Assembly: GCF_018399035.1 (NCBI RefSeq)
Contig: NZ_CP073760.1
Coordinates: 4,288,269-4,352,268, forward strand
Length of the DNA stretch: 64,000 bases
Direction of reading: 5' to 3'
Source of the DNA: Thiocapsa sp.
Lineage (GTDB): Bacteria; Pseudomonadota; Gammaproteobacteria; Chromatiales; Chromatiaceae
Position 1 is the first letter of the stretch. The number at the start of each line of letters is the position of its first letter. Shown in pieces: positions 12,107 through 45,329 of the stretch. A program made the translations under genes and the position numbers. The notes beneath the pieces were generated by a model. That model had not been told where the DNA came from. It ran no database searches and saw only the letters and a program-made list of their open reading frames with translations.

Positions 12107-12112
12107 AGATGC

Positions 12113-13794
12113 TCATGTGTCTTTCTCGTTCTCTTCCGCCACCATCGAGAGCGTTGGTTGCGCACGATTTGTTGACTGTGTTCGTAGCCAGTTGGCAGTG
12201 ACTTCTATCGGGAGTAGCGCGCCCCGGAGTTTTGGAGAGGATTCGACGAATTCCCGCAGCCGATCACCATCGAACAGACCAAACAGCGCTGCTTCGTCAG
12301 CAACAGCGCAGCCTTGATCGGGTGCATTGGCTGCGACTGCAGGCCAGACGTTGCCTGCACCGATTCTGGCAACGACGAATGCACCGCCGACTAGCGCCTC
12401 GTGGACGGAAAGCGAGAAGGTCTCAGGACAAAGTTGCCAACTCACGACGACGTCGATGCGCGACTCGGCGATCGCTTCGACCATTGCATTGCGTTGTTTC
12501 GTATCGACAATGACCGGAATGTTGCGAATAAAGCTGGGTAGAGGAGATCCGGAGTCCGGCGACCCGAGCTGCAGGAATTCGTATCGACCATCGTTGGCCA
12601 GGTGCAGTGCGAGATCCTCGAAAATCGACCATCCTTTTAGAAATGCCCTGGCGCCGAGGTGGGCTACACGAAGCGGTCTGCCAGGAGGGATAGGCATGGT
12701 GCTTCGCTCGGAAGGCGCGGTTATGATACGAGCAATAGGACACGCTTCGCCCTGCGCGTGAGGCAATCCACTACCACGTCGCCAAAGGCTTAGGGCGATT
12801 TCGGACGGTGCCAGCACCGAGGGATGCACTGCCTCGAAGAACTCTCTGATCCGCTTGAGATGAGGTTTACGCTCCTCTCCGTATGAGCAGATGTTGCAGG
12901 CAACGGACATCGGTGGCGGAGCGCCGCAGTAGTCGACATCGTTACGCATGAGCGCGTAACTGGGGCAGAGTGTAAAAAAGTCGTGGATCCAGACGATCGG
13001 GCGCAGATCACCGCTCGCACGGAGAAGCTCAAATACGAACTCAGGGGCGAACCCCATCAGGTGGTGAATGACACATCGCACCTCGATGCCCTGCCTACGC
13101 TGCTCTGCAACGGCGGCAATCAGGTCTACGAACCTGGCTACCCCAGTCCATTTGGTGTCTATTCGAAGGCTGACAGCGAAATCGTCTGCAGGCTCGGGGT
13201 CTGCGAGCATCGGCAGCGGTATCGCGGGAGAAACGTGGAGGTAACGCCAACCGGTTCGGCTGAACGTAGCCTGCTCATCGCCGATGACCAACTGAACACC
13301 ACCGTAGTTTCTGGCGTAGTCGTCATGGCTGAGAGATAGGATCAAACCGCGGCTGGCAGATGAGATCTCAACGGCATCCGATAGTGTGGTTTTCGAGATC
13401 GGCGGTGAACGCTCGGCGCCTTCGATCCATCTTTTCGCTTTGACTCGCGGCGACACGCTGTCTTCAAGCTGCCGCCGGAACGCATCGAGCGGACGGCGAC
13501 GTTGTCGGCCTTCTTGCGAGCCGGCCCAGATGAAATGGAGGAGTGGGTTGATGCCGGCTGCGGCAACGTCGGGGTTTTTGCGAGATAGTAGCCCGTGTCG
13601 AAGAATCGGCTGGGGTTGCGTCCCTCGCGCCAACCAGATTCGAGAAAGTGCGTCAGTGGATCAATGCCCGCGTCGCGCACATCACTATTGGACGCAAGAT
13701 AGTAGCCGCGGTCGAAATGCGCGGCGACCGCCCGGCGTTCGTCTTCGCTTGGGCGGTGCATTACGTCGGGATATCTTGCATCTAAGCTACCCAC
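12113..13794 (-). CDS. Putative glycosyltransferase (GT-B-like C-terminus) with two N-terminal NPDV/EGR repeats; -1 frame break in the given sequence
   Basis: ORFs 13342..13794 and 12113..13633 join as ...FFDTGYYLAK|NPDVAAAGINPLLHF if the T5 run (A5 on the coding strand) at 13575-13579 is one base longer. C-terminal motif: CPETFSLSVHEALVGGAFVV. Confidence 0.6.
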
Positions 13795-13822
13795 ACGCGA
13801 TCGCCTTTTGGTTGGTGAATCG

Positions 13823-13911
13823 GGCCTTGATCATAGTCCCGGCCAGTGCCTGACGAACAGTGCGTAGTCAGGGCTTCCAGCCCTAATTCTGTCAGGCCGG
13901 GATGGCCTGAC
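13823..13911. repeat. 89-bp multi-hairpin repeat, family D (copy 1)
   Basis: Near-identical inverted copy at 58723-58811. Internal palindromes include GTCAGGCC..GGCCTGAC. Confidence 0.8.
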
Positions 13912-13980
13912 TGTGCGGGCAGCAGTCCATGTGGTCGGAGTTATGAACAAGGCCGTGCATCGGTTAACGGCAACGCTTAA

Positions 13981-15384
13981 TCAGGCTCGATGTCGGACCA
14001 GGATCCGGCGCAAAACGGCGCGGAGACGCGGACTGCCGTGGATGATCCGACGGAGTGGAGACGTCAAGCGCCAAGTTGTGCTCATTTCGATCTCGATGGC
14101 TCGACGTTCTGCGGCTAGGGCGCGTTTCTCGAAATCGTCGGCACGGTCTCGCTCTACTCCAAGGGCGGAGAGGCGGTCAAGCGCCTCGACAGATGCGCGA
14201 GCCATTCGAGCCTCCGCGTACTGCGCGCGCTCTTGTTCGGATTCCAGTTGAGCGAGTCGCTCGTCGGCTCGCTCCTTTGCCTGTCTAAGCCCAGCCTCCG
14301 CGTTCTGCACGCGCTCGCGCTCGGTTTCCAGACGCGCGAGCCGCTCGTAGGCCAGCGTCTCGGCCTGTTGTAGTCCAGCTTCGGTTTCGGCTAGCCGGGC
14401 CAAAACATCTTTGTCCGGTAGCGGCTTCGGTTGCCAGCCGGGGCAGAGATAGGTTTCATACTCCTCGCCCCGAAGCCTGTGCACAGCGAGAGCGACCACC
14501 TCTGCGGCGCCGAGACCAACCCAATCACGTTCGCCCCAGCGGGGGGTGCGCCAAAGAGCCTCTTTAAGGTCGTCTTGGTGGTTAACGCGGCGGAGGATGC
14601 AGCCATGACGGAGCATCTCTTCATCCAGCACAGGCGGCGTTTTCGGTGCAGCGAGTATTCCGGCTTCATAGGCTAGTGGTAAAATTGAGACGGTATCGCC
14701 TAGAAAGTTGTCCGGGTTGTGGGCAGGAAAAGCGAAGTAGTAGAGATCCAATCCCCAAGATAGGAGTAAGGCTGCAATGTCCAAGGAGCTCGGGTCTTCT
14801 CTGCACTCGACCCAGATGCTGGTTTCGCCACATCTGAGGTGCTCGGCGTCGCTCTCGAGAACGCCGAGCTCCATCCCTTCCAGGTCGAGCTTTACGAGGT
14901 CGAAGGCTCCGTGTACCGCACGAAGCTCGGCGAGGGTGACAAGGCGTTGCTGAAAGACGGTTTGGCTCCCCGGTGAGGGAGTGGCGCTATCGCCTCCTGC
15001 AACGAAGGACGTCGCACCAAGGTTGCACGGGTCGCAGAGCCCATCATGGAAAGTGCAAGCGGGCCATCCGAGAATCCCTTCGATGACACTGAAAGTGCCT
15101 TTGTGGTTGCGTGCGACATTCTCCTTAAGTAAGGGGATCAGTGCGCTGTTTGCCTCGATCAAGCAGAGATGATCGACGTGCCGCTGGAGCGCGATACCGA
15201 GACCGAAGGTGCCAATGAATGCCCCTGCGTCCAGAATACGAACTCGATCTCTCGGTAGCGTACCGGCAACGAAACGGGCTTCCTCCCACGCCCATTCTCC
15301 GTAGCGATCCAGGAAGCGTCCTATTAGATCCGTCGCCGTGTCCGGAACCGTTAGAGTTCCGTAACGTGTATCAACCTCAGCCAT
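13981..15384 (-). CDS. FkbM-type SAM-dependent methyltransferase with C-terminal coiled coil
   Basis: 467-aa ORF. Motifs: RILDAGAFIGTFGLGIA (SAM-binding glycine motif) and LVKLDLEGMELGVL. The C-terminal ~130 aa are heptad-rich and end in STTWRLTSPLRR. Confidence 0.6.
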   Translation of the reverse strand: MAEVDTRYGTLTVPDTATDLIGRFLDRYGEWAWEEARFVAGTLPRDRVRILDAGAFIGTFGLGIALQRHVDHLCLIEANSALIPLLKENVARNHKGTFSVIEGILGWPACTFHDGLCDPCNLGATSFVAGGDSATPSPGSQTVFQQRLVTLAELRAVHGAFDLVKLDLEGMELGVLESDAEHLRCGETSIWVECREDPSSLDIAALLLSWGLDLYYFAFPAHNPDNFLGDTVSILPLAYEAGILAAPKTPPVLDEEMLRHGCILRRVNHQDDLKEALWRTPRWGERDWVGLGAAEVVALAVHRLRGEEYETYLCPGWQPKPLPDKDVLARLAETEAGLQQAETLAYERLARLETERERVQNAEAGLRQAKERADERLAQLESEQERAQYAEARMARASVEALDRLSALGVERDRADDFEKRALAAERRAIEIEMSTTWRLTSPLRRIIHGSPRLRAVLRRILVRHRA

Positions 15385-15671: not shown

Positions 15672-15754
15672 TAGGGCGAAAAATTTAGCTTTTGAAAACA
15701 CGTTGGGAGGCCAAGTTCCGCATTTTCAGTCTGGCTCGGGTCACCGGACCCTTA

Positions 15755-15888
15755 GGCGAATTCCGGAAACCTTCATGCCAAGGGTGTAGTTTGTGCCGAG
15801 CCGTGCGAGGCACAACCAACCGTAGGCGCAAGTTGTGCTTCCTAATCGTCAGCACAACCTACGGGTATGGAAGTTTGCAGAAATCGCC
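15755..15888. mobile_element. 134-bp MITE family A (IS-end-like TIRs around a GTAG REP doublet), flanked by TTA/TTA
   Basis: Left end GGCGAATTCCGGAAAC, right end GTTTGCAGAAATCGCC, with TTA on both sides (15752-54, 15889-91). The core is GTAGGTTGTGCC..GGCACAACC / GTTGTGC..GCACAACCTAC. Confidence 0.75.
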
Positions 15889-16685
15889 TTAATGCTCGAC
15901 TTCGGCCATTTCCGTGGCTCGGGAGGGCCGGGAGGTGCCTGGAGCGATGGTGACGGACCCGATTGATTTGGCGGCAGAGTGCCGAGGGCGGTATCGTCCG
16001 ATGTCGACCAAAAACCACGGACGTGCCCGAGCATGTTCTCTCTGCCGACCTCGATTGTATCTGTTCTGCAGCCCTTTGACTGCCTGTTCACCTGTCCGAC
16101 CCTGGCGCATGAGCACGGCTTGCCGGCGGGAACGCTGCTGGCGCAGGTGCCGCGCACGATGGGGCTGAGCGCGGAGCGGCGCTTCGAGCTATCATCGGGT
16201 GCTGAATCGGGAGCAGTGTTCGCCGCGCCAACGGGAAGGTTACAGGAGTCAAGCTGACAGTGTAAAGATCTCGCGAAGCTGACAAGGCGCCCGCAGCAAA
16301 GAAATAGTGGTTGATGATGGCTCCGGCTGAGCCCCGTGCATCTTCACGATCCGTGGATGACGGTGCTTGAGCTTGTCGCGATGATATTCGACAGCCGCGT
16401 ACATGCGCACAGAATAGACGCGGTACAATGAGATCTGGGGGGATCAAATAGAAAGATATGACGAACGCTTACACACCTAAGGAGGCTCGATGACCGCGTT
16501 GGTAAGTAACGAGGTGGAGCCGGCGCGTGACATGCGTTGTTCGACATCCCTTTCACGGATACACTTATCTCTGTCGCTTGAGGTTTGTGTTTGATGTGCG
16601 TCTCCTTTACTCGTCTGGATCCTTATGAATTCGATCATGCGATATAAGTTCTTGTCTGAAGTCGCCTCTGCGGAAGTCTACTGTG

Positions 16686-22398: not shown

Positions 22399-22506
22399 GG
22401 GGTTCTCCGGCGTCCGCGAATCTGCCGCGGACGTTTTTCAATGGGGTTGATCGGATCAAGGAAGCGATTGCCGTGAACCGCCGCTGCTCCGGCTGCGGTC
22501 GACTTA

Positions 22507-22745
22507 GGCGATTTCCGCAAAATTCCATCCCTGTAGGTTGTGCTGACGTTAGGAAGCACAACTTGCGCCGACGGTTGGGCGATTTCCGGGAATGATCATC
22601 CCGGCCGTGCGTGTTGCCAATGCTTACCGGGCGACTAAAGTCGCCCCTACATGTTGGTCGATGCTTTCCCGGAAATCACCTTGGTTGTGCCTCGCACGGC
22701 TCGGCACAACCTACGCCCTTGGTGTTAAGGCTTCCGGAATTCGCC
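22507..22745. mobile_element. MITE family A copy interrupted by a family B MITE
   Basis: Ends are GGCGATTTCCGCAAA... and ...CTTCCGGAATTCGCC, with TTA on the left flank. The body matches 15755-15888 in inverse orientation apart from the 103-bp insert. Confidence 0.75.
22578..22680. mobile_element. 103-bp MITE family B nested in family A, with a 3-bp TTG target duplication
   Basis: TIRs GGCGATTTCCGGG / CCCGGAAATCACC. TTG at 22575-77 and at 22681-83, whereas uninterrupted A copies carry a single TTG there. Second copy at 35228-35330. Confidence 0.8.
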
Positions 22746-22748
22746 GTA

Positions 22749-33214: not shown

Positions 33215-34615
33215 CTAAACTTCGGGCGCCACGGGGCAAGGCACCTGTGTTCGGGCGGAGATGATACGCCCGAGGTTGCTTGCATAGGACTGCATCTCTT
33301 CCTCCGTTCTCAGCTCGGTCGCGCAGACCAGGACCGCGGGATCGAGCTTGGGATACTCCGCGCCGAGGTCGCATCCGCCCAGGATGTTGTGTGAAGCCAG
33401 CGAGCGGAGGACGTCGGCCGCGGGTGCAGGCAGGCGCAGCGCCTGCTCGTGGAAGACCGGTCGATCGAACAGGGGCGCCACGCCCGGGACTGCGCACAGC
33501 AGCTCGGCGAGCCGTCGGGTATTGGCATGACAGGCCGCGGCGACACGCTCCAACCCCTCGGCGCCCAGCAGGGTCATGTGGATGGTCGCGGCGGTGACCA
33601 GCAACCCTTGATTGGTGCAGATGTTGGATGTCGCCTTGTTGCGCCGGATGTGCTGCTCGCGGGCCTGCAGGGTGAGGGTGAAGCCGGGCTTGCCGTCCAG
33701 ATCGAGCGTGCGGCCGACGATGCGCCCGGGCAGTTGGCGCACGAATTCCTGACGACAGCAGAGGAACCCGGCATAGGGTCCGCCGGAGGCGAGCGGCATG
33801 CCCAACGGCTGCGCCTCGCCGCAGGCGATATCCGCGCCGGTGCTGCCCCAGTCTCCGGGCGGGGAGAGCAGGGCGAGCGCGACCGGGTTGACGACCCCGA
33901 TGACCAGCGTGTCGCGGGCATGGGCCCAGTCGGTGAGCGCGTCGACGTCTTCGAGCACGCCGAAAAAGTTGGGCTGATTGACCACGAGCGCGGCGTAGGG
34001 GCCGTGTTCCGCCAGCGCATCCAGGGCCTCGATCGCGGTGTGTCCGCCACGCGGGTCGAACGGCACCTCGACCAGCTCGATGCCCTGGGTGGAGACGATG
34101 CTGCGCAGGGTGCGCCGATAGGCCGGGTGCAGGGAGCGCGGCACGAGGACCTTCTCGGACTTGACCTTGCGGTTCGCGCGCACCGCCATCAAGACCGCTT
34201 CCGCCAAGCCGGACGCGCCGTCGTAGAGCGAGGCATTGGAGACGGCCAGTCCGGTTAGGGCGACCATCATGGACTGGAACTCGTAGAGCAGCTGCAGGGT
34301 GCCCTGGCTGGCCTCCGCCTGATAGGGCGTGTAGGCGCTGTAGAACTCCCCGCGGGTGGCGATCTGCCAGACGGCGGCCGGGATGTGATGATCGTAGGCG
34401 CCGGCGCCGATGAAGCAGAGTGGCTGCCCGTCGGCGCGCGCGCGCGACTGCATCAGTCGGCCGATGTCCATCTCGGCCATGCCGGTGGGGATGGCCGCCA
34501 GCTCCCCGATCTGAAGCTCGGCCGGGATCTCGTCGAAGAGATCATCGATGGAGGCGACGCCGACGGTGTCGAGCATCGCGGCGATGTCGTCGGGGGTGTG
34601 GGGTACAAAGGGCAT
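33215..34615 (-). CDS. gcvPA: Glycine dehydrogenase (decarboxylating) subunit 1, GcvPA
   Basis: 466-aa ORF. Sequence: [34 protein letters not shown].... Confidence 0.92.
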
Positions 34616-34617
34616 AT

Positions 34618-35010
34618 TTAGGTCTCGTCGTCAACGACCTGTTGATAGGCTGCCGCATCCAGGAGTCCGGAGAGCGCAGCCATGTCGTTCGGGGCGAGGC
34701 GGAAGATCCAGCCTTCGTCGAAGGGGCTGTTGTTGATCGCCTCCGGGCTGTCGTTCAGAAGCGCGTTCGACTCGATGACCTCGCCGGCGAGGGGTGAATA
34801 GATATCGGAGGCGGCCTTCACCGACTCGACCACGGCGCAGGCTTCCTCGGCGTCGACTTCGCGCCCTTGATCCGGGATCTCGACGAAGACGATGTCGCCG
34901 AGCGCCTCTTGGGCGTGATCGGTGATGCCGACGGTGACGGTACCGTCGCCGTTGTCTCTGATCCACTCGTGGCTTTTGGTGTATCTCAGGTCAGCAGGGG
35001 CGTCGCTCAT
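34618..35010 (-). CDS. gcvH: Glycine cleavage system H protein
   Basis: 130-aa ORF. Sequence: [37 protein letters not shown]...[12 protein letters not shown] (lipoyl-lysine motif). Confidence 0.95.
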
Positions 35011-35067
35011 GGTTCTCTCCGATCAATCGACGGGTTGTCTGTGCGCTCTTCGCGCCGTTGCGATCTA

Positions 35068-35148
35068 AACCGCGCCCAGTGCGGTATGCGATGTTTTTGG
35101 ATGGGATCGGCCCCGGCGGATTTCAGAGCCGCTGGAGCCGGCGCGGTT
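35068..35148. mobile_element. TA-flanked AACCGCG-TIR MITE (subfamily 1)
   Basis: Differs from 15483-15563 by about one base by eye. Confidence 0.85.
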
Positions 35149-35177
35149 TAAGAACGATTCAAAAACAATCGAGACAT

Positions 35178-35209
35178 GTAGGATGGGTAGAGCGTAGCGA
35201 AACCCATCC
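35178..35209. repeat. Single GTAG-type REP arm, family C
   Basis: Sequence GTAGGATGGGTAGAGCGTAGCGAAACCCATCC. Confidence 0.75.
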
Positions 35210-35227
35210 TCACAGCTCAAACGCTTA

Positions 35228-35330
35228 GGCGATTTCCGGGAATGATCATCCCGGCCGTGCGTGTTGCCAATGCTTACCGGGCGACTAAAGTCGCCCCTAC
35301 ATGTTGGTCGATGCTTTCCCGGAAATCACC
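35228..35330. mobile_element. MITE family B (copy 2), flanked by TTA/TTA
   Basis: Same 103-bp body as 22578-22680. TTA at 35225-27 and at 35331-33. Confidence 0.8.
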
Positions 35331-35370
35331 TTAAGCCGCGCCCGGTGCGGTTTCACCCTGACCACAGGGG

Positions 35371-36461
35371 TCAGAGGTCGATGCAGATCCGGCCTTGCCG
35401 CACGAACGGCGGTTTGACGATACGTGCGCTCACGGGTTTGCCGCGGATGTCGACCGCGCACTCCGCGGGTGTGCCGGGCTCGACCCGCGCGAACGCGATC
35501 GAGCGCTCCAGGGTCGGCGAGAAGCCGCCCGAGGTGACCTCGCCGACCGCCCGGCCGTCCGCGAGGACGCTCTGGTGAGGGCGCAGGACGCCGCGGCCGG
35601 TCAAGAGCAGACCGACGAAGTCGCGCCGCTCGGGATGAACACGCCGAGCGGTCAGGGCCTCGCGACCGATGAAGTCGCGCTCCTGCGGCTCCGGGCGATG
35701 GTCCAGCCGAGGCCGGCATCGAGCGGGCCGACCGTCTCGTCCATATCTTGGCCGTAGAGGTTCATGCCGGCCTCCAGGCGCAGCGTATCCCGGGCACCGA
35801 GGCCGCAGGGGCGCACATCCGCCGCGACGAGCGCGCGCCAGAGTGCCGCGGCCTCCGCGCTCGGCAGCATGATCTCGAAGCCGTCCTCTCCGGTGTAACC
35901 GGTGCGCCCGACAAACCAGTGCGCGTCCTCGGCCGCGAAGAAGGGTCCGACCTGCATCGCCGAGGCGCGCAGCCCGTCGGGCAGCAGCGGCTCGACGCGG
36001 GCACGCGCATCCGGTCCCTGCACGGCGATCATGGCGAGGTCGCCGCGGCTTCGGATGTCGACCTGACGTCCGCCGGCCTGTGCCTGCATCCAGGCGATGT
36101 CTTTCTCGGCAGTGCCTGCGTTGAGCACCGCGCGATACCGCTCGGGTCCGCGAAAATAGAGGATGAGATCGTCGACCACGCCACCCTGCGGGTTGAGCAT
36201 GCAGGCGTAGAGCGCCTTGCCCGGCGCGGTCAGTTTGGCGGCATCGTTGGCGAGCAGATGTCGCAGAAAGGGCAGGGCATCCGGGCCTTCGATGTCGACC
36301 GGGCGCATGTGGGAGACGTCGAACATCCCGGCGGCGCGGCGCACCGCGTGATGCTCTTCGATCTGTGAGCCGTAGTGCAGCGGCATGTCCCATCCGCCGA
36401 AGGGGACGATCCGGGCGCCGAGACGCTCGTGCTCCGAAAACAAGGGGGTGCGCAATCCCAT
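35371..36461 (-). CDS. gcvT: Glycine cleavage system aminomethyltransferase GcvT; -1 frame break in the given sequence
   Basis: ATG at 36461 ([33 protein letters not shown]...). ORFs 35652..36725 and 35371..36393 join as ...AGLGWTIA|[14 protein letters not shown] if the G3 run at 35693-35695 (C3 on the coding strand) is one base longer. Confidence 0.9.
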
Positions 36462-36759
36462 CCGACTCTCCGTTCGCCTGGTGGCTCGCCCGGCGGGCTG
36501 GCCTGTTGAGTCGTCACCGCTCGCGAGGCGTCGACCGGGGTCAATATCGGGCGCAGGTGCGCTCGATACAAAGGGCGAAGGAAACGGGTGATGCGCGCAG
36601 GCCGCGTGCGGGTCGACCGTCCGATACAGGACGGCGAGCCGGAATGCGAATGCGCTCGAGGGCGCGACCCCGGATGCGGGGGCGACGGAGCAGGCGCGCG
36701 GCGCGTTCCAGGCTCGTGCAGGCACGATCCTTCGGGATCCACCCGGATCCTCGACACCG

Positions 36760-36955
36760 CCCCTCTGTCCCAGACCTGAGAGTTTGCAGGCGGCCGAACG
36801 CGTCGGTCGCTGCTGCCCCTTCGGTGGGTCCCGACTGTCGGTACAGTCCGGACCGCTCTCCAGAGTCGGTCGTTATTCCCGCGGTCCTTTTGCCTGAGCG
36901 ATTCCGGGCAGTGTTGCGCCTTCGGCGCCGGCCGAGGCCGGACTCTCCCGCGGGA
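36760..36955 (-). promoter_or_regulatory. Tandem glycine riboswitch (two aptamers)
   Basis: Minus-strand read. Aptamer 1: CGCGGGAGAGTCCGG...GCGCCGAAGGCGCAA...CTCAGGCAAAAGGACCGCG. Aptamer 2: CTCTGGAGAGCGG...CCACCGAAGGGGCAGC...CTCTCAGGTCTGGGACAGAGG. Lies upstream of gcvT. Confidence 0.9.
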
Positions 36956-36987
36956 CTTGACGCGAAACGGGACTATAAGCGCGGTTC

Positions 36988-37121
36988 GCTCGGATTTCCA
37001 GCGATCACGGTTGCGGGCCGTAGGTTGTGCCGAGCCGTGCGAGGCACAACCAACCGTCGGCGCAAGTTGTGCTTCCTATCGTCAGCACAACCTGCGGGTA
37101 TGGAGATTTCCGGAAATCGCC
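36988..37121. mobile_element. MITE family A (copy 3, left end degenerate)
   Basis: Core GTAGGTTGTGCCGAGCCGTGCGAGGCACAACC...GCACAACCTGCGGGTATGGAGATTTCCGGAAATCGCC. Confidence 0.65.
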
Positions 37122-37149
37122 TGAATCGCCCCCATCAACCCGCCTCCGC

Positions 37150-37668
37150 CTACGGGCAGGCGCTCTTATCGCCCGCGACCTTGCCGGTCAACTGCAGGAA
37201 GGTATCGAACGGACCCATGACGCCCATGGCCTCCATCTTGGGTCCTTTGAACTTGAGTTTGCCGGTCGTCATCGCGCCCATCGCACCGCAGCCGAAGCGG
37301 CCTTCGCCCATGCAGGCCCAGTCCTCGTCGGTTGCATTCATCAGGTAATCGACCTCGGGGTCGAGCGTCGTGGTCTTCACCGCGCCGCCGTAGGTGCACA
37401 GGGCCTTGCCGTCCTTGTCGCTGATCTGCAGCTCTACACGGCTGCCCTCGCCGCACTGGGTGCGATAGAGCTGGATGACCTTGTGTCCGCGACCGGCGTT
37501 GTTCGCCGCCCAGTTTTCGCCGGCCAGACCGGCGGTGAGCGCGCCGGCGCCGTTCCAGGCTTGACAGGCGGAGGCCGCCCAATCGGCGTCCATGAAGGTG
37601 GCGGCCTGAGCGCTGGCGGAGACGGTCAGGGCGAGAGCCGGGAGGGCGAGCGCGATGCGGCGAATCAT
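37150..37668 (-). CDS. Secreted SCP2 (sterol carrier)-like domain protein
   Basis: 172-aa ORF. Signal peptide MIRRIALALPALALTVSASAQA. C-terminal TGKLKFKGPKMEAMGVMGPFDTFL resembles the SCP2 signature. Confidence 0.55.
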   Translation of the reverse strand: MIRRIALALPALALTVSASAQAATFMDADWAASACQAWNGAGALTAGLAGENWAANNAGRGHKVIQLYRTQCGEGSRVELQISDKDGKALCTYGGAVKTTTLDPEVDYLMNATDEDWACMGEGRFGCGAMGAMTTGKLKFKGPKMEAMGVMGPFDTFLQLTGKVAGDKSACP

Positions 37669-37956
37669 GATGGTGTCCTCGTCTGGTGTTATTTGCGGGC
37701 AACGCCTGTGTCCGCTGTTTGTCTTGTCGTTCGAGCGCTTCGATGCTAGTCGGCGCGGGGCCGGTGATGCAACTGCAGGGCGACGAGCCGATCGAGCCTA
37801 AGTTCCGGTCTCTGGCACCGATGCAACGAGCGCCCGGTCCAGAGCACGGAGCGGTCGCTGGAACTTTGACGCTGTGGGGAAGATGTCTTTGGTGACCTAC
37901 GTAGACAGTTCTTGCCGGCCAGACCGACGCGCAAAACGACCGCGCCCGGACGGAAG

Positions 37957-39461
37957 CTATCTGGTCTGCCCCCTTTTCGGATTCCGAGCCAGCCGCGCCA
38001 GGGCAGAGATGGCCTTCGCGACACTCGCCCCACGCCCAATCGATCTCTGCAGATTCTTGGCAAATTTCAGCTGACGCGCGTCATCCTCGTTCTGGACCAT
38101 CCGTTCGAGGCTGGCGATCAGCGCGTCGGCAACCTCCCGTTCCCCGCGCGCGCGGTTCAGCAAGGCCATTGATCCGTAGAGGATGAAAAGATCATGGATG
38201 TGGATCCGTTGGCGAGCCGCTAACCCTTTGAGCAACTCGTCAGCCTGATCCAGCTTGCCATCCAGGATCACCAGATTGGCCAGATTGCAGCGTGCACAGA
38301 GGTAGTCCGGATGGTCTGCAACAACCTCCCGCAACAGTTGCTCCGCCTCCTGGTGTCGCCCTTGGGCGGAACGAATCGCCACCAGATTGCCCTTGGCTAC
38401 AGCATGGTCGGGAACGCGTGCCAGGTGAGCGGGAGCGCCCGCGCGAGATCGAAGACCGATGGATACGCGAACGTCTGATGGTCCCGTTCGAGACCGGCGC
38501 TGTTGTGAAGCGCAAGTTTGAAATCCGGCGTCAGCGCCAGCGCCTCGCGCCACAGGCCCAGTGCGTCCGACACTCTGCCCAACCGACTCGCGGCGCAAGC
38601 CGCGAAGTGGTGCAGCAGCGCACGCGAGTAGCCCTCACCGATCTCGAACCAGTCGCATTGCGTGTTGCGTGTAAAGACATCCCGGGCGACCGCGTCCTGC
38701 CGAAGCAACAGCAGGGCATCGAGCTGGAGCAAGGCGTCGTCCAGACGCCTGGCGGTTGCCCCCGCCAAGGGAATCGTCAGACCCTGCGCCCCCACCTCGT
38801 CGCCCCGATACAGGCGCAGGCGCACAGCCCAGCCGAGGGCGAACAGGTTGTCCGTATCCGCCTCCCAAGCGGCCATGAAACCGGCCAACGCCTCATCGAT
38901 TCGACCGAGATGAAACAGCGCCATGGCCCTGTTGTTGCGTGCAGAGAGGATCTCCAGGCCGTCGAGACGCGCGATCGCACCGGCGAAATCCTGTGCGTCC
39001 AGATAGAGTTTTCCGATGTCGAACCGTTCGATCTGCTCGACCGTTGCCGCGGTTCCGTCCGGCATCGAGAGCAGGTCCGCACGCAGGTCGGGTGTCACCG
39101 GAAAACCCGGCGTCACCATCCCCAATGCGCGCAAATGCCGCGCCGCGCGATCCGCCAGCAGGACATGCCCCAGTCGTGATGCAAAGGCGAGCAGCGCCCC
39201 CTGGGCCTGGACACTGTTGGGTCGACGCTCGGCCCATTCGAACGCGGCAAGCCCCGCCGCACGGATCCCCTCGCTGCGCTCCAATGCCTCGACCAGAAGG
39301 CGTCTGAGTCCGGCATGATCAGGACATCGGTGAACCAGCGGCTTGAGCCGTTGGACCGCTTTGGTGTACTCGCCTGCTTCGATCAGGCGCTCGATCGCCT
39401 TCAGTTGGGCGGCTTCGGGTTGTGGTCGGCCGGGCTTGGTCTTGCTGGGTTTCTTCGGCAT
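37957..39461 (-). CDS. TPR-repeat protein; possible -1 frame break (or two overlapping genes)
   Basis: ORF 38397..39461 (354 aa, TPR-like helices) ends ...LPLTWHAFPTML. ORF 37957..38598 continues TPR-like sequence (...PDHAVAKGNLVAIRSAQGRHQEAEQLL...). They join if the G3 run at 38410-38412 is one base longer. Confidence 0.55.
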
Positions 39462-39536
39462 GCGGGATTCCAGTTCAAAGCAGGGCGCCGCTTAGGCCTG
39501 TGCCGCAGCAACCGGGTTACAACCAGCCGGCGCGTC

Positions 39537-39890
39537 CTACGCCGCTTTCAGCACGATCTCCATGCGCACCTCGTCATAAGGAAACACCAGTTTGCCGTCA
39601 TCGGTCTTGTCGAGCACACCACAGACCACAAGTGCCTGAGCATCCGTATGCACGCCTTTGACATCGCGCCCGACGCGCCGCGCGAGTTCTCGTACCCCGA
39701 GCGGTCCGGCCCCCGTCATCACTTTGAGAATCCCCCAACGGTTGCCTGTCAACGTCGCCCAGAGATCCTCGTAGCTCGGAAACGTGATGAAACAGCCTTG
39801 CGGCTCGCCGTGAAAAGCACCTTTGGTGCGCCGCTTGGTGGTTTCGATGTCGGCGACTTCGATCGTCACAGTGGTCATGGGGTGCCTCAC
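39537..39890 (-). CDS. Winged-helix antitoxin-like DNA-binding protein (TumA / HVO_A0114-like)
   Basis: 117-aa ORF. Sequence: ...LTGNRWGILKVMTGAGPLGVRELARRVGRDVKGVHTDAQALVVCGVLD. Has a 4-nt overlap with the upstream small ORF. Confidence 0.6.
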   Translation of the reverse strand: MRHPMTTVTIEVADIETTKRRTKGAFHGEPQGCFITFPSYEDLWATLTGNRWGILKVMTGAGPLGVRELARRVGRDVKGVHTDAQALVVCGVLDKTDDGKLVFPYDEVRMEIVLKAA

Positions 39891-40099
39891 AGTCGGGCGA
39901 CGTCGGCCCAGAAATCATCGACCAATTGATCGAGTGTCGTGAAGGCATAAGAGACTTCACGAGCGCCCACGTGCTTGTGGTCTCCCTTGCCGCTCTCGTT
40001 GTCGTAGCGAAGTACACAGACCTCATCGATCACGAAGGCCAAACGGTACTTGAAGGAATGTCGACTGCCGGGCGCGGGTTCGGGGAGCTGCCAGATCAC
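39887..40099 (-). CDS. TumE-like (DUF6516) toxin-family small protein
   Basis: 70-aa ORF. Sequence: ...FKYRLAFVIDEVCVLRYDNESGKGDHKHVGAREVSYAFTTLDQLVDDFWADV. Operonic with the wHTH gene. Confidence 0.55.
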   Translation of the reverse strand: MIWQLPEPAPGSRHSFKYRLAFVIDEVCVLRYDNESGKGDHKHVGAREVSYAFTTLDQLVDDFWADVARL

Positions 40100-40586
40100 A
40101 ATATCCGCAAAGCGGTTGTCGCTCAGCTTGACGCGCGATCTCAGGAGCAGGGCAGCTGGCGTGTTGTAACCATGACAACAACCTTGGGCGTTGTCAACGT
40201 TGATGAGAGCAAAAACCTTATCACCGCTTTCGGCCGTCTGTCAGTGTCGGCAATGTGCGTCGTTCAGTCGCCCGACTTGGGTCACGGACTTGTCGCTCCG
40301 CCCCAGGAGCGGTCTGTCATGGGACTCGCACCAGCGTCCCCTGAATGCCACATTGCGGTCACTGACGCCCCTGAAAAACGGCGAACCGCCAACAAAGAAG
40401 GACACTCGATTCGTAGCGGTTAGCCGGCACTCGTTCCCGGAGCGAGCACGTAGTCAGCGAAGTCAGACTATGAGGCTGTCCGACTTGGATTCGCGATGGC
40501 GATTATGGAACCTGAAGCGGACAAGTCGAGGGGGCAGCTCCCCCTATTCGTTTGGGTCGGTCAGAGGTAGACGCGGACATCAAGCG

Positions 40587-41207
40587 TCAATCAACCGGAA
40601 GTGCCTCTTCCGGAAGCGAGCGAATCACCCGATAGACATGGCTTCCGAGCCTGTCTGGCCAGCGACCACGAGGCGATGGATCTTTGGCTTCCGCACGCTC
40701 GAGTGCGGCTCGCAGATGCGGCTCAAACCGTTCCGGCTTGAGCTTGCTCTTGTTGTAGCCGTGGCCCGTGGCCCGGCGCAGTTCCTGCTCGATGTCCCTG
40801 CAGCGGTTGGTATCGCGGATATCAGCAGTCAAGTGATAGAGCAGCCACACTTCGAAGCAGGGATTGCTGATCGCGAGCCCAAAGCCCACGCTCTTGGCTT
40901 CTCTCGCAACAGCCGCAAGCTTCCCGCTCCCCCAGCGATCCACGTCCAGCATGAGCCATAGGCTGTCGCCGGCGCCCAGCTGATATCTCTCGCGAAATGC
41001 GCGAAGGCGCTCCAGGACATATTCCGGTGCCGATCGGTTTTGATCATCCGCCGACAGGACTTTCACTTGGATACGGGTGCTGCGAAACATGGCGAAATAG
41101 TCATGCTCGGTCTGCCGCCCCTCGGCGGCAATGATGACAAGCTGGGTATCGCGCAGGTGCTCCTGGCTGCGGTCGAGCGGGCGACGCCTGCGCCGAGTGA
41201 GTGCCAC
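40587..41207 (-). CDS. RloB-like (Toprim-related) protein
   Basis: 206-aa ORF with GTG start. Motifs: LVIIAAEGRQTEHDYF, LWLMLDVDRWG (DxD) and LAISNPCFEVWLLYH, which are the RloB hallmarks. Starts 11 nt downstream of the ATPase gene. Confidence 0.8.
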   Translation of the reverse strand: MALTRRRRRPLDRSQEHLRDTQLVIIAAEGRQTEHDYFAMFRSTRIQVKVLSADDQNRSAPEYVLERLRAFRERYQLGAGDSLWLMLDVDRWGSGKLAAVAREAKSVGFGLAISNPCFEVWLLYHLTADIRDTNRCRDIEQELRRATGHGYNKSKLKPERFEPHLRAALERAEAKDPSPRGRWPDRLGSHVYRVIRSLPEEALPVD

Positions 41208-41217
41208 GGGCAGAAAC

Positions 41218-42579
41218 TCAGCAGGGCACGTCTAAACTGACGGCGGGCTCGCGGATGAGAGGAACTCCTCCGAATCGGCCGTTGAGGTAGCTTTTCTCGA
41301 GCTTGAGATCGGGACGCACCTTGAGTGCATTCATGGAGTAGAGACGAGAGGAGCCATATCGGTCTTTCTCGAAGAACCAGATTTCGTCGCGGCGCAGGAC
41401 CTCCAAATCCATCAGGTGAGTGTCATGCGTGGTAAAGACTAGCTGGGTACGCTGCTCATCTGCGCAGCGATCAATGAAGCTAGAGACGAACAGACGGGAC
41501 AGCAGGGGGTGGAGCTTGCGATCGAGCTCATCAACGACATAAACGCGCTCGCCGGAGGCAGCGTCTGCCAGGATGGGCAGAATCTCCATCAGTCGCTGGG
41601 TGCCTGAGGATTCGTCTTCAAAATCGAAATTGGCCTCGATCGCATCTCGCCCGATATGACGGGTCTTCAGGCGCGCGACCGTCGGTCGAGCTTGATCATC
41701 GCAGTAGATGGTAAGGCTTTGGCCGTCCGGACCTGGCAGGCTATAGATCGCGCCTTGCAGAAGCTCCGTTTCGATGTCCTCGCGCAGCCCCGCCGGCACC
41801 CCGGGAAAATGTCTTTCGAAATCCAGCGGCTCTTCTTCGCTGCTCAGGCCATCGATGCCCGTGCCGGCATTGCGCAGGAAGTCTGCCATGAACTCGACGA
41901 AATCTTCTTCGCGGTTGATCCGCACAGCCAGCGGCTGAGGGGCCTCCTCCGCAGAGACGACCGTCAGGACGCTTTTGAACCAGCGGAACAGAGGTTTGAG
42001 GACCTCAACGTTACGGTCTACAGCTTCGGTCAGAAAGAGCTGATTGGGACGCGTCCCCTGAGCCACGAACTCCAAGAACTGGCGGCGTTTCTTGTCGCTG
42101 CCGGCGAACTTGGGGCCCATCTCGACGGTGACCTTGTTGTCGGCATCGGTCACGCGCTCGAAATATCGAGCCTCGCGAGCGGTTTCACGGACGAAGAGCC
42201 ATTCCTCGTGGACACGCACGGCATCCACGGCGAACCCGTAACTGTATTCGACACCTTCATAGTCGATGAGGAAATCAAAGCGGGAGGGTTTCTCACGGGA
42301 CTGCCGATCGAGCCGGTACGGCTGGGTCGGGATGCGTCGACCGCTCTTGGTTCCTAGGATAACGAGACTCTGAGCAAACCTTAAGGCTTCGATGAGCTTG
42401 GTCTTACCGTGGGCATTGGCGCCATAGAGTGCGGCCAAGCGCAGGATGCGCGGCCTGCGCCCGGTCTGGCTCTGTACGAGATGCCGCGGATGCTCTGGAC
42501 CAGCAGAGGCGACCATCGAGAACAGGGCCTCCTCAGCAAAGCAGGCGTAATTTTCGACAGCGAATTGAAGCAGCATCAA
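41218..42579 (-). CDS. ABC-type (AAA_21-like) ATPase, partner of RloB
   Basis: 453-aa ORF. Walker A GANAHGKTKL, signature-like DESSGTQRLM, Walker B RVYVVDELDRKLHP, H-loop VFTTHDTHLM. Confidence 0.8.
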   Translation of the reverse strand: MMLLQFAVENYACFAEEALFSMVASAGPEHPRHLVQSQTGRRPRILRLAALYGANAHGKTKLIEALRFAQSLVILGTKSGRRIPTQPYRLDRQSREKPSRFDFLIDYEGVEYSYGFAVDAVRVHEEWLFVRETAREARYFERVTDADNKVTVEMGPKFAGSDKKRRQFLEFVAQGTRPNQLFLTEAVDRNVEVLKPLFRWFKSVLTVVSAEEAPQPLAVRINREEDFVEFMADFLRNAGTGIDGLSSEEEPLDFERHFPGVPAGLREDIETELLQGAIYSLPGPDGQSLTIYCDDQARPTVARLKTRHIGRDAIEANFDFEDESSGTQRLMEILPILADAASGERVYVVDELDRKLHPLLSRLFVSSFIDRCADEQRTQLVFTTHDTHLMDLEVLRRDEIWFFEKDRYGSSRLYSMNALKVRPDLKLEKSYLNGRFGGVPLIREPAVSLDVPC

Positions 42580-43384
42580 GAGTCCCAGGTGTGACCATTT
42601 TAGGTGATTATGTGCTTTTCTCGTGATTTTTTCGAGAATCCGGATACGGGATCCCCGACTATCGCCGCTGACGCCTCATTCCCTCCGCCAAGACGGCACC
42701 CGCCGCAGGTCCCCCAACTACCCGCCATCGCGCAGCTTGTGGCGCCGCTCGGACGAGGTCGCCTCTCTGTTGCCGTCCATGGTGGCCGCCTAGGGGAGTG
42801 CCTGTCTCAGTTGGTTTTGTGTCAACGCCGATCCCGTGCCGCCGGGCCAAGGCATAACCGAAGAGGTCCCAATCTTGTCGAGGCTTTTACCAATGGCTCG
42901 ACGGCCCTTGACGGTCGGCCTGTGGGAAACGGCGCACGCACTCGAGCATAGTGCTCCATCCAGATCACCAGGTAGACTCGGTGGCCGCTCTGCAAGAGAG
43001 TCCGGTCCTTGCAATACAAGGCCGGACGGACCGCTAACAGGATCGAAGAGTCACTCGCTTCCGGTTGATGGGAGACGGCTCCTGGCCAACTGCTGCCGGT
43101 CGGCGAGAGGCGGCGGAGCATCATCTTGGCGTCCCTCTGCGGACGTGGGGCGTCGCGAGCCGAACTGGCGGCTGCGCGAGATCCCAAGCGACAACCCGTC
43201 GTGGTCGTATCGCCACAACCGCTGAAGGGCGTGAGTTAAACGGGTGCTCCAGCGGTGGTAGCAGCTCCGGATTGATCGTCAGCACGATGCCCCTTGCCTG
43301 GCCGGGGGTGGGACGCCCCTCGCTGTTCCAGCCGGACCAGCATCGAGTGCTCCGAGGGTGGTGACACGACTGTAGGGTCTACCC

Positions 43385-43900
43385 ATGCGACGGCGCACGG
43401 ATGCCTTGGTGACCGTTGCGGTACGCTACGGACGGAACCCTGGGCCTGAAACGAAGGTCAGCGTGAGCTACTCGACCCGCATCTACATCCTCGGACCGGA
43501 CGACACCCTGTACCGACTGGCCAGCGCGAAGTTCCGCCGCATGGTCGATGACCCGAAGAGCCACCGACTGGAGCGCTTCGCGGGCCAGCGCGTGCGGATG
43601 GCCGAGGTGATCGTGGAGGTGCGGGATCGGGCGCCCTATGCCGTCGTCCGGCTCGTCTACGAAATGCTCGGGTTCGATGCCGAAGGGCGGTTGGACCGCG
43701 ACGCGTTCATACGCAGGAACGCGGCGTTGGCGGAACTGGCCATAGATCCCGTGGTGCCTCGAATGGTGAAAGCGGAGAAAGGCGTGGTTGATGCCGGCAG
43801 CCGCTTCATTGCGCGCGGGGGATTCTGGCATCCTTCCGCGGCCCTGGAGCTGGAGATTCTGCGCGCAGCGCTCGACGAGACGCCGTGCAAGCGGCCCTAG
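43385..43900 (+). CDS. Hypothetical protein (no recognisable motif)
   Basis: 171-aa ORF. The start is uncertain (ATG 43385 or internal GTG before SYSTRIYILGPDD). Codon usage looks coding. Confidence 0.45.
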   Translation: MRRRTDALVTVAVRYGRNPGPETKVSVSYSTRIYILGPDDTLYRLASAKFRRMVDDPKSHRLERFAGQRVRMAEVIVEVRDRAPYAVVRLVYEMLGFDAEGRLDRDAFIRRNAALAELAIDPVVPRMVKAEKGVVDAGSRFIARGGFWHPSAALELEILRAALDETPCKRP

Positions 43901-44015
43901 CGCGATCGGGCTCAGGCGTCGGAGAAAGCACTGACCTGGAGGGCTACAGGCTCTGCCTTCCGGGTAGCGACACCCACATGCCCCCGAGACCGGAAAGTCC
44001 AGACGATATGCTTTA

Positions 44016-45313
44016 GGCGAATTACGGGGAAAGTTATACCATTGTGTGAGATAGTCGTGACTGGCTTTGAAGCAACGCGCGGATTGTCATGATCTCTGAT
44101 CCGAATCCAACCGCCCCGGATGCGGGGCATCGCGAGGATCTCAAACTCGCCGCCTCGAAAATGCTCGGAGCGGAGCGACGGGCGTTCCAAGCGGCGATGG
44201 CCGTGAAATATTGCGCCGGGAGCGCCCGGCAGGCCGAAGCCGTCTTCGGGTGGAGCTGGGTCTGCATGAGCGGCGCACCGGGGTGGTCTGCTTGAGCGCA
44301 CAGTCGGCGTTCGGCGGCGACAAACTTTGGGAAGAGAAACATCCCGCGGCGGCGGCGGTGCTGCGGGAGCTGGCGGATGCGCACTCGCAACAAGACCCGA
44401 CCTTCCGCACGACGCAGTCGTTCACCCGTTTGACCGCGGCGGAAGCCCTGAGGCAATTGCGCGCGCGCGGCATTGCCGAGGCCGAGCTGCCCTCGCCGAG
44501 CACGATGGCCCAGATACTGAACCGCAACGGTTACCGGCTGCGGCCGGTGCTCAAGGCCAAACCCCAAAAAAAGTCCCGCAAACCGATGCCATCTTCGACA
44601 CTATCCGAGCCAAAGACCAACGCGGCGAGGGTGGCCAGGTCGCGCGACTGAGCGTCGACTGCAAGGCTACGGTGATGATCGGCGAGTACTCGCGGGGCGG
44701 CTGTCGCCGTGGCGAGGTCAAGGCCGCCGACCACGACATGGGCTGTCATGAGAAAGACACCCCGTTCGGTCTGGTCAACGAGGACACCGGCGCGCTGCAC
44801 CTGACCTTCGGAAGCTCCGCCAAGACCAGCGACTTCATCGTCGACTGCCTGTATGACTGGTGGGAGCAGCAACCTCCCGAGCAGCGCGAGCGCATCACCC
44901 TGGTTCAGATCAAGGCCGACAACGGCCCGGAAAGCAACGGGCGGCGCACCCCATTTCTCAACCGCATGGTCGCGTTCGCCGATCACATCGGCAAACCCGT
45001 TCAGCTGTTGTACTACCCGCCCTATCACAGCAAATACAATCCGGTGGAACGCTGCCGGGGGATCCTGGAACAGCATTGGAACGGTGCGCTCCCGGTGGAC
45101 GCCCGGACCATGCTCGAGTGGGCCAAGAGCATGACCTGGAAGGGACTGAATCCGGTCGTGGAGGTGAGTCGTCAGGTCTATGAAAAAGGGATCTCACTGT
45201 CCAAGACGGCCATGAAGGACATCGAGGCGCGCTTGCAGCGAAACCCGGAGCTTCCGAAATGGGACATCCTGATCCAACCGGCAGTCTCGGTATGAAAGTT
45301 CACGGAAATCGCC
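44016..45313 (+). mobile_element. ISAzo13-family insertion sequence (~1.3 kb)
   Basis: Imperfect IRs: GGCGAATTACGGGGAAAG (from 44016) and, at the right end (to 45313), the reverse complement GGCGATTTCCGTGAACTT. Flanked by TTA / TTG. Encloses the transposase frames. Confidence 0.7.
44089..45295 (+). pseudogene. ISAzo13-family DDE transposase split over three frames (two -1 breaks)
   Basis: ORFs 44089..44295, 44211..44651 and 44327..45295. C-terminal motif: ...IKADNGPESNGRRTPFLNRMVAFADHIGKPVQLLYYPPYHSKYNPVERCRGILEQHWNG. Breaks at G3 44248-44250 and A7 44566-44572. Confidence 0.75.
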
Positions 45314-45329
45314 TTGAGGGACCGGGTCT

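Follow-up and report, generated by a model that had tools for sequence, protein, structure and literature searches.

A probable AbiL-type ATPase–RloB gene pair in an islet bounded by mobile elements on a Thiocapsa chromosome

Introduction

What do the two adjacent minus-strand genes at positions 40587–42579 of a chromosomal stretch of Thiocapsa sp. encode, and do they serve defence against phages? The stretch analysed here (hereafter the window) comprises 64,000 nt of NCBI RefSeq assembly GCF_018399035.1 (contig NZ_CP073760.1, positions 4,288,269 to 4,352,268 of the forward strand). An earlier note, made from the letters alone, read the pair as a split ATP-binding cassette (ABC) ATPase plus RloB/Toprim module of the OLD/PARIS/AbiL class. 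Our analysis supports that reading through both Pfam (AAA_21 and RloB) and PADLOC (AbiLi and AbiLii), and the pair is probably of the AbiL type. AbiL has been known since 1999; to our knowledge, no structure of the family has been solved, and neither its trigger nor its nuclease target is known. Nothing about the Thiocapsa copy would surprise a specialist, and the interest of the locus lies in a family whose mechanism is unsolved.

Layout and translation starts of the gene pair

Two open reading frames (ORFs) on the minus strand fill the interval 40587–42579 of the window, the ATPase gene first and the RloB gene second. The pair and its putative signals are as follows.

41218..42576, minus strand: gene for a probable AbiLi-type, Rad50/SMC-like ABC ATPase of 452 aa (Pfam, PADLOC, motifs, AlphaFold2 model, Foldseek)
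40587..41207, minus strand: gene for an AbiLii/RloB-family protein of 206 aa, predicted to be a Toprim-type metal-dependent nuclease (Pfam, PADLOC, AlphaFold2 model, conservation)
41208..41217, minus strand: intergenic spacer of 10 nt, gtttctgccc (sequence read)
42607..42635, minus strand: promoter-like site TCGAAA-17-CATAAT (consensus match)
40529..40545, minus strand: G+C-rich palindromic hairpin AGGGGGAGCTGCCCCCT (sequence; terminator-like flag on the plus strand)

The ATPase had been described as a 453-aa protein, and this is the length of the mechanically called ORF (41218..42579), which opens with TTG. The true start is most likely the ATG at 42576, one codon past the TTG, because an identical (100 %) public protein from a Thiocapsa sp. 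assembly (P0001) is annotated as 452 aa from that ATG and because MLxQF or MLxRF forms the N-terminus of all 34 aligned ATPase homologues. The RloB ORF opens with GTG, a start backed by homologues beginning MALT.

The order of the two genes and the short gap between them stand as earlier described, save that the gap measures 10 nt and not 11. It runs from the ATPase stop codon TGA to the RloB GTG and holds no obvious Shine–Dalgarno sequence, which suggests that the genes form one operon, co-transcribed and with coupled translation. The candidate promoter precedes the ATPase start codon by ~30 nt and falls in an A+T-rich stretch; the consensus scan returned 2 sites in the region against 0.9 expected. 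The hairpin AGGGGGAGCTGCCCCCT, ~40 nt past the RloB stop codon and without a T-run on the minus strand, is the probable end of the transcription unit.

Family assignment

Both proteins match defence models, with scores well above what chance would give. The ATPase matches Pfam AAA_21 (E value 2.2e-33, 117 bits, cut-off 27), with AAA_15 below threshold, and the PADLOC AbiLi model PDLC02335 over residues 1–444 (E value 2.1e-82, 274.8 bits). Its next PADLOC match is an AriA model (110 bits), which looks generic because it spans the same residues as AAA_21. A second PADLOC AbiLi model, PDLC02336, is matched weakly (3.9e-05), suggesting that the ATPase probably represents a different clade inside the AbiL family. 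The second protein matches Pfam RloB (PF13707; E value 1.8e-27, 97.2 bits, cut-off 31.5) over profile positions 2–195 of 195, and its sole PADLOC family match is AbiLii (PDLC02337; E value 1.9e-17, 62.4 bits). It has no other Pfam match at E≤10, and this includes DUF4435/AriB, a family that the earlier note had put forward for checking; AriB is likewise absent from its PADLOC matches at E≤0.01. No specific or housekeeping NCBIfam model matches either protein.

Since the AbiLi score is far above that of AriA, AbiLii is matched as well, and there is no DUF4435/AriB, no GajB and no fusion of the two proteins, we assign the adjacent, co-oriented genes with good confidence to the AbiL type (AbiLi + AbiLii). 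This fills in the subfamily, which the earlier note had left for PADLOC and profile searches to decide. The pair is an ordinary addition to a widespread family, one that PADLOC would call automatically, and the Thiocapsa assembly gains one routine AbiL defence call.

Motifs and predicted structures

All the strings on which the ATPase had been recognised are present: GANAHGKTKL (Walker A, G52–K58), SSGTQRL (signature, S323–G325), VYVVDELD (Walker B, D349–E350) and TTHD (H-loop, H384); the Q-loop glutamine is Q179. These five ABC motifs are invariant in 35 ATPase sequences, down to 44 % identity. The AlphaFold2 model (predicted local distance difference test score, pLDDT, 86.5) retrieved Rad50 (5da9), PtuA (8sux), Thermus OLD (6p74), retron PtuA and GajA (8sm3) from the PDB with Foldseek (E values 3e-11 to 1e-8), and the protein belongs to the Rad50/SMC-like AAA_15/AAA_21 defence clade. 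Its least conserved segment is residues 261–300, with a column entropy of 2.46 bits against mostly 0.5–1.1 in the motif regions; there, the model mixes helices and strands, with no long coiled coil. From its variability, this segment is a candidate trigger-binding site.

The hallmarks earlier noticed in RloB (AEGRQTEHDYF, LDVDRWG and ISNPCFEVWLLYH) are also all in place. The AlphaFold2 model (pLDDT 91.3) has strands at 22–28, 46–51, 82–88 and 110–115 with helices in between. E29 comes after strand 1, D88-x-D90 closes strand 3, and E119 and H125 come after strand 4. Among 109 RloB sequences, D88, D90 and H125 are conserved in 100 %, E29 in 99 % (one Asp) and E119 in 98 % (the exceptions being Asp). 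The EGxxxE of RloB is reminiscent of LLVEGxxE in P2 Old, GajA and Thermus OLD. RloB has been described as a new member of the Toprim superfamily, with a Glu after strand 1 and a DxD after strand 3 (PMC12065111), and the model fits this signature: a Glu at the end of strand 1, a DxD at the end of strand 3 and the order of strands and helices along the chain. We therefore treat RloB as a predicted Toprim-type protein, a link that rests on its motifs and on published analyses.

Structural and profile comparisons weigh on the other side. Against the PDB, the RloB model had no Foldseek match at E≤0.001, and its top 50 contained no Toprim protein, the best matches being noise (integrin I domain, PCSK9 and DhaK, with template modelling (TM) scores of about 0.3). 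Searches of PDB sequences with phmmer and with two profiles (the latter at E≤10) also returned nothing. Alignment of RloB with a P2-Old Toprim profile by hhalign gave a probability of 1 %, with the register off by one strand–helix unit; this profile is shallow (effective number of sequences, Neff, 1.9), so we regard the value as uninformative and do not count it against a Toprim fold. The sources of the profile were a search with the C-terminal half of Old, which gave 4 proteins, and two viral-contig scans, which gave the same 13 loci (12 at 65–100 % identity and one truncated match). The best match of the RloB model in BFVD was a phage 'RloB-like protein' (TM score 0.68).

Because RloB matches no solved Toprim by Foldseek or profile, and because the ATPase insertion replaces a coiled coil, a further reading can be considered. 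AbiL-type pairs might form a mechanistically separate branch of ATPase–nuclease immunity, in which the insertion would read anti-restriction or anti-DISARM proteins and the pair would act as a portable back-up in or beside restriction-type systems. We consider this unlikely.

A conserved two-gene unit

Scanning one genome per species yielded at least 503 RloB relatives, of which the best 80 loci were kept; these come from Gamma- and Deltaproteobacteria, Cyanobacteria, Planctomycetota, Bacteroidota, Chloroflexota, Acidobacteriota and Firmicutes. In 73/74 testable loci, the gene directly before RloB, in the same orientation, encodes an ATPase homologue. The other seven of the 80 are five in which RloB lies within ~130 nt of the contig start and which are untestable, one (L029) placed likewise but counted as testable, and one with a partial RloB. 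The identity of the ATPase to its counterpart in the window rises and falls with that of RloB (Pearson 0.89, n=72), indicating that the two are inherited together. In the wider RloB family, 10,274 representatives of 50 %-identity clusters (E≤1e-3) are nearly all stand-alone proteins of ~200 aa.

Whether the pair needs a third partner had been left as a question, and the neighbourhoods answer it: no third gene is common within five ORFs on each side of the pair (72 loci, 63 distinct contexts). The largest position-specific neighbour cluster comprises six Pseudanabaena-like loci, and no neighbour family reaches past one clade. Two candidates in the window, an orphan ORF and a TumE pair, were rejected as components of the system, being present in same-species contigs only among the fetched loci. 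A conserved third partner for the AbiL-type pair is thus unlikely.

Proposed mode of action

We somewhat favour the view that the operon encodes an AbiL-type anti-phage or abortive-infection module, in which the ATPase would act as sensor and restraint for a toxic RloB nuclease. In an uninfected cell, an ATPase oligomer would bind and silence RloB. The hypervariable ATPase insertion (about residues 261–300) would detect a phage-derived trigger, and this event, together with ATP binding or hydrolysis, would release or activate RloB. The latter would then cut nucleic acid (tRNA/RNA or DNA), so that phage production stops and the cell pays for it.

The nuclease activity of RloB, the sensor and antitoxin role of the ATPase, the trigger and the abortive outcome are what we infer by analogy with three cases, and our confidence in these details is lower than in the family membership. 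AbiL is listed among the defence systems that combine an ABC ATPase with a TOPRIM protein (PMC11464382). In PARIS, AriA sequesters the Toprim nuclease AriB and frees it on binding a phage protein, whereupon AriB cleaves tRNA (PMC11464382). Lactococcal AbiL gives phage resistance, aborting infection after phage transcription (Deng 1999, as cited in PMC13064643). A Clostridium algidicarnis toxin of the RloB node is neutralised by its own AAA ATPase (PMC10440598), and AbiLii of Fusobacterium proved toxic to E. coli (PMC3985639).

Several published points weigh against this account. Fusobacterium AbiLi supplied in trans failed to neutralise AbiLii, and lactococcal AbiLii is non-toxic in E. coli (both PMC3985639). 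The PARIS authors consider AbiL and RloAB to be structurally distinct from PARIS (bioRxiv 10.1101/2024.01.02.573835), and the mechanism of AbiL is not known (PMC13064643).

Neutralisation of an RloB-type toxin by an ATPase also raises the alternative that the pair is an addiction module, with RloB as toxin and the ATPase as antitoxin, which would stabilise the mobile block described below, or plasmids, and have no dedicated anti-phage role. In NetFlax, the network of type II toxin–antitoxin (TA) systems links RloB-type toxins to AAA antitoxins, with one such pair validated (PMC10440598). Relatives occur on very small mobilizable plasmids that encode little else, and the window pair has another TA pair as its neighbour, within a block that mobile elements delimit. 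Weighed against this are the phage resistance conferred by the founding AbiL in the account of Deng 1999 given by PMC13064643, and the DISARM nesting and restriction–modification (R-M) proximity of relatives, which point to defence. The conserved ATP-hydrolysis motifs and the hypervariable segment of the ATPase suggest regulated sensing over stoichiometric neutralisation. TA behaviour and defence are, moreover, compatible, PARIS being both. We give a purely addictive role a low probability and retain the defence module with a restrained nuclease as the preferred account.

Genomic contexts of relatives

Relatives of the pair occur at varied sites. Those on plasmids include 5.2-kb mobilizable plasmids of Klebsiella and E. 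coli and an Agrobacterium plasmid at 42 % identity. Relatives in phage records are rare; among PHROG families, the two proteins match phrog_16255 and phrog_5836, both of unknown function. The 81 %-identical pair of Imhoffiella lies at an unrelated genomic site.

At that site in Imhoffiella purpurea (L005:12105–15699), the pair is followed by two sizeable uncharacterised proteins, one of 441 aa with no matches and one of 763 aa (TPR-like, with a weak match to a Cas5d model), and the next genes are NadM–Nudix-like and NAMPT; these could be another defence or NAD-related module.

Some relatives sit within or beside restriction-type systems. In L006 (1–16018), a 58 %-identical pair is nested in class-1 DISARM, where it separates DrmMI from DrmA, with DrmB and DrmC following and a PemK toxin and an SNF2 helicase upstream, an arrangement that recalls rloA/rloB within type I R-M loci. 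In L103 and L104, the pair adjoins a SacI-like endonuclease and a D12 methyltransferase (type II R-M), and in L007, it adjoins a STAND-like ATPase and a CHAT protease. Three other inspected contexts consist of plain metabolic genes. Overall, defence or mobile-element genes are found in about half of the nine inspected contexts, and the housekeeping-like remainder speaks against a dedicated defence role. Among 121 flanking ORFs from 16 further loci, defence matches (mad3, type I methyltransferase, PD-T4-6 and ResIII) are mixed with ordinary metabolism; this neighbour scan used a pseudo-alignment, with family counts that lack a background control and families that are fragmented, and carries no statistical claim.

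Nesting of this kind suggests another alternative, namely that the pair is a second line behind restriction, sensing phage anti-restriction proteins or the failure of R-M or DISARM (compare PARIS and Ocr) instead of detecting infection autonomously, in which case the window would hold an orphan copy parted from its partner system. The DISARM-nested relative, the two loci with the SacI-like endonuclease and the Campylobacter rloA/rloB genes inside type I R-M loci all agree with this, and the idea has also been voiced by the PARIS authors. In the 9-kb islet of the window, by contrast, there is no R-M, DISARM or BREX gene, most of the 63 distinct contexts lack such a neighbour, and unrelated functions dominate the family counts among the 121 neighbours. 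No trigger is known for any AbiL. A second-line role for this copy therefore seems doubtful.

The metabolic neighbourhoods bear on a different possibility, that the proteins form a small Rad50/SbcC-like or RecF/RecR-like machine for housekeeping or repair of the cell's own DNA. The ATPase fold is nearest to Rad50/SMC heads, RecR is a Toprim protein too, and several homologous pairs lie among ordinary metabolic genes. Such a role fits poorly with a patchy distribution at sites that differ even between related Chromatiaceae, with the lower G+C of the pair than of its flanks and with the plasmid and phage relatives; the absence of NCBIfam housekeeping matches and the defence models as best profile matches point the same way. 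We regard it as very improbable.

In Microcoleus (L106:2069–9995), the pair lies directly downstream of gcvT-gcvH-gcvP, and the window pair (33215–42576, the genes included) lies a few kb from gcvTHP; this proximity in two of about nine contexts may be coincidence.

Family membership, intact catalytic motifs, conserved pairing and a patchy, mobile distribution are established, and together the contexts fit a small, horizontally moving defence cassette. For experiment, the AbiL-type pair offers a strict two-gene unit, the catalytic candidates E29, D88, D90, E119 and H125, a likely sensor segment at 261–300 and a DISARM-nested relative.

The islet and its boundaries

The earlier note placed the pair in a small islet with a TA pair, an orphan ORF and an insertion sequence (IS), and the islet proved real (TumE, 4.7e-13; HVO_A0114, 5.2e-26; ISAzo13, 2e-62). 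At 0.59, the G+C content of the pair is below that of the gcvTHP and leuS genes on either side (about 0.65). Around the pair we recognise the following features, including a repeat resembling a miniature inverted-repeat transposable element (MITE).

37020..37122, plus strand: MITE-like repeat, two GTTGTGC...GCACAAC hairpins with an IS-type terminal repeat; left boundary of the block
44015..45314, plus strand: ISAzo13-family IS of 1.3 kb (Pfam DDE_Tnp_ISAZ013, 2e-62; NCBIfam transpos_ISAzo13)
39537..40099, minus strand: TumE toxin and its HVO_A0114 winged helix-turn-helix partner, context (Pfam)
43385..43900, plus strand: orphan ORF of 171 aa, divergent from the pair, context (ORF list)

A block of 6,996 bp (37020–44014) is 99.06 % identical to L002:955–7950, where both flanks are different. 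It contains the pair, TumE/HVO_A0114, two TPR genes, a 172-aa gene and the 171-aa orphan ORF. The right break of the block is the exact left end of the ISAzo13-family IS, and the left break lies inside the MITE-like repeat. With one breakpoint at an IS end and the other in a MITE-like repeat, the block may move or rearrange as a unit through these elements; L002 is a short metagenomic contig whose ends could be chimeric. The islet thus presents AbiL as travelling in a 7-kb block with a second TA pair, between IS and MITE bounds.

The IS has imperfect terminal inverted repeats (AGGCGAATTACGGGGAAAGTTATACC ... GGTATGAAAGTTCACGGAAATCGCCT), and its transposase is frameshifted or decayed, being split over two ORFs (44211–44651 and 44327–45295). 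Further MITE-like copies lie at 15754–15889 and 22506–22746, and a single repeat-like site lies at 35227–35252. The hairpins of these repeats are flanked by a terminal repeat of roughly 26 nt that is the same as that of the IS (GGTATGrAnnTTTCCGGAAATCGCCT), and the repeats are probably non-autonomous derivatives of the ISAzo13-family IS.

A decayed transposase next door raises the possibility that the pair itself is decaying, a remnant without function that travels as a passenger of the IS-bounded block, and the TTG and GTG starts in the mechanical ORF list could be taken in the same sense. Both ORFs are, on the contrary, full length relative to their homologues with all catalytic residues intact, an ATG start is available to the ATPase, and several independent contigs carry the ATPase with an identical (100 %) sequence. 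A remnant is therefore scarcely credible, and we keep to an intact AbiL-type module.

TumE (PF20126, 39887–40099) and HVO_A0114 (39537–39890) overlap by 4 nt and lie ~490 nt downstream of RloB. The two are TA-like, and both match PHROG families of unknown function. Upstream of its GTG, the TumE ORF offers no ATG, GTG or TTG, and the protein falls short of the Pfam model by ~12 N-terminal positions. None of the other 80+ related loci carries this TA-like pair. The 171-aa orphan has no match in Pfam, PADLOC, NCBIfam or PHROGs and is found, among the fetched loci, only in those of the same species (L001 and L002).

An Rfam scan of 36.5–46.3 kb found no RNA element tied to the AbiL-type pair. It detected a glycine riboswitch aptamer (RF00504) at 36872–36960 on the minus strand (74.8 bits, E value 1.3e-14), upstream of gcvT at the edge of the core gcvTHP operon. 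The window has no tRNA genes and hence no tRNA-linked integration site.

At the far side of the window (1–30000) lies a polysaccharide cluster of low G+C (0.50–0.59). It encodes a 2,198-aa multi-glycosyltransferase (WbsX, GT1 and GT2 domains), more large glycosyltransferases, an ABC-2 transporter pair, a PMT-like protein and three ORFs of 291–506 aa (11231–15384) without a Pfam match.

Comparison with known systems

The ATPase heads of Septu PtuA/PtuB, class 1 OLD (P2 Old and Thermus OLD) and Gabija GajA are similar to that of the window ATPase (Foldseek E values 6e-11 to 1e-8), and the coupling of an ABC ATPase to a nuclease is common to all. The Septu nuclease, however, is an HNH protein, OLD and GajA fuse the ATPase with the Toprim domain, and Gabija needs GajB; the window pair has none of these. 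Membership of Gabija was rejected on finding two separate proteins and no GajB or helicase gene in 37–46 kb, and class 1 OLD (P2 Old type) on finding the ORFs split by a stop codon and a 10-nt spacer, a split kept in relatives.

Campylobacter RloA/RloB resemble the window pair, the second protein belonging to the same Pfam family and its partner being an AAA-type ATPase; one plasmid homologue of the window ATPase carries the annotation RloA. These genes lie inside type I R-M (hsd) loci, whereas the window pair has no hsd genes nearby, and a type I R-M-embedded RloA/RloB was rejected because the ORFs of 37–46 kb include no hsdR/M/S or other methyltransferase.

The PARIS pair AriA/AriB is likewise split, with the ABC ATPase first and then a small nuclease described as a Toprim, and its ATPase is of the same AAA15/21 defence clade (PMC11464382). 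The probable logic is also alike, an ATPase holding a toxic nuclease and freeing it on sensing a phage protein. The effector differs, being RloB (PF13707, 206 aa) here and DUF4435 (about 300 aa) in AriB, and PARIS structures are not in the top 50 fold matches of the window ATPase. PARIS membership was rejected for lack of an AriB/DUF4435 match (PADLOC E≤0.01, Pfam E≤10).

The NetFlax pair TOPRIM_OLD(D44):AAA(D29) of Clostridium algidicarnis, a distant organism, joins an RloB-homologous toxin node to an AAA antitoxin node and is compared here by description. Its toxicity and neutralisation were validated in E. coli, with no phage phenotype shown (PMC10440598).

The founding system of the type, lactococcal AbiL, which PADLOC and DefenseFinder model, comes from the Lactococcus lactis plasmid pND861. 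It is plasmid-borne, whereas the window pair is chromosomal in a purple sulfur gammaproteobacterium, and a tblastn search of plasmids at E≤1e-3 gave no Lactococcus record among the matches listed. Figures in a review of AbiL, '212 out of 453 aa' for an ATPase superposition and '123/206 aa' for AbiLii against 6NJV, resemble the sizes of the window pair and are not stated there as protein lengths (PMC13064643). Like the Thiocapsa pair, lactococcal AbiL consists of two co-oriented genes, an ABC ATPase and then RloB, a likeness drawn through the PADLOC models.

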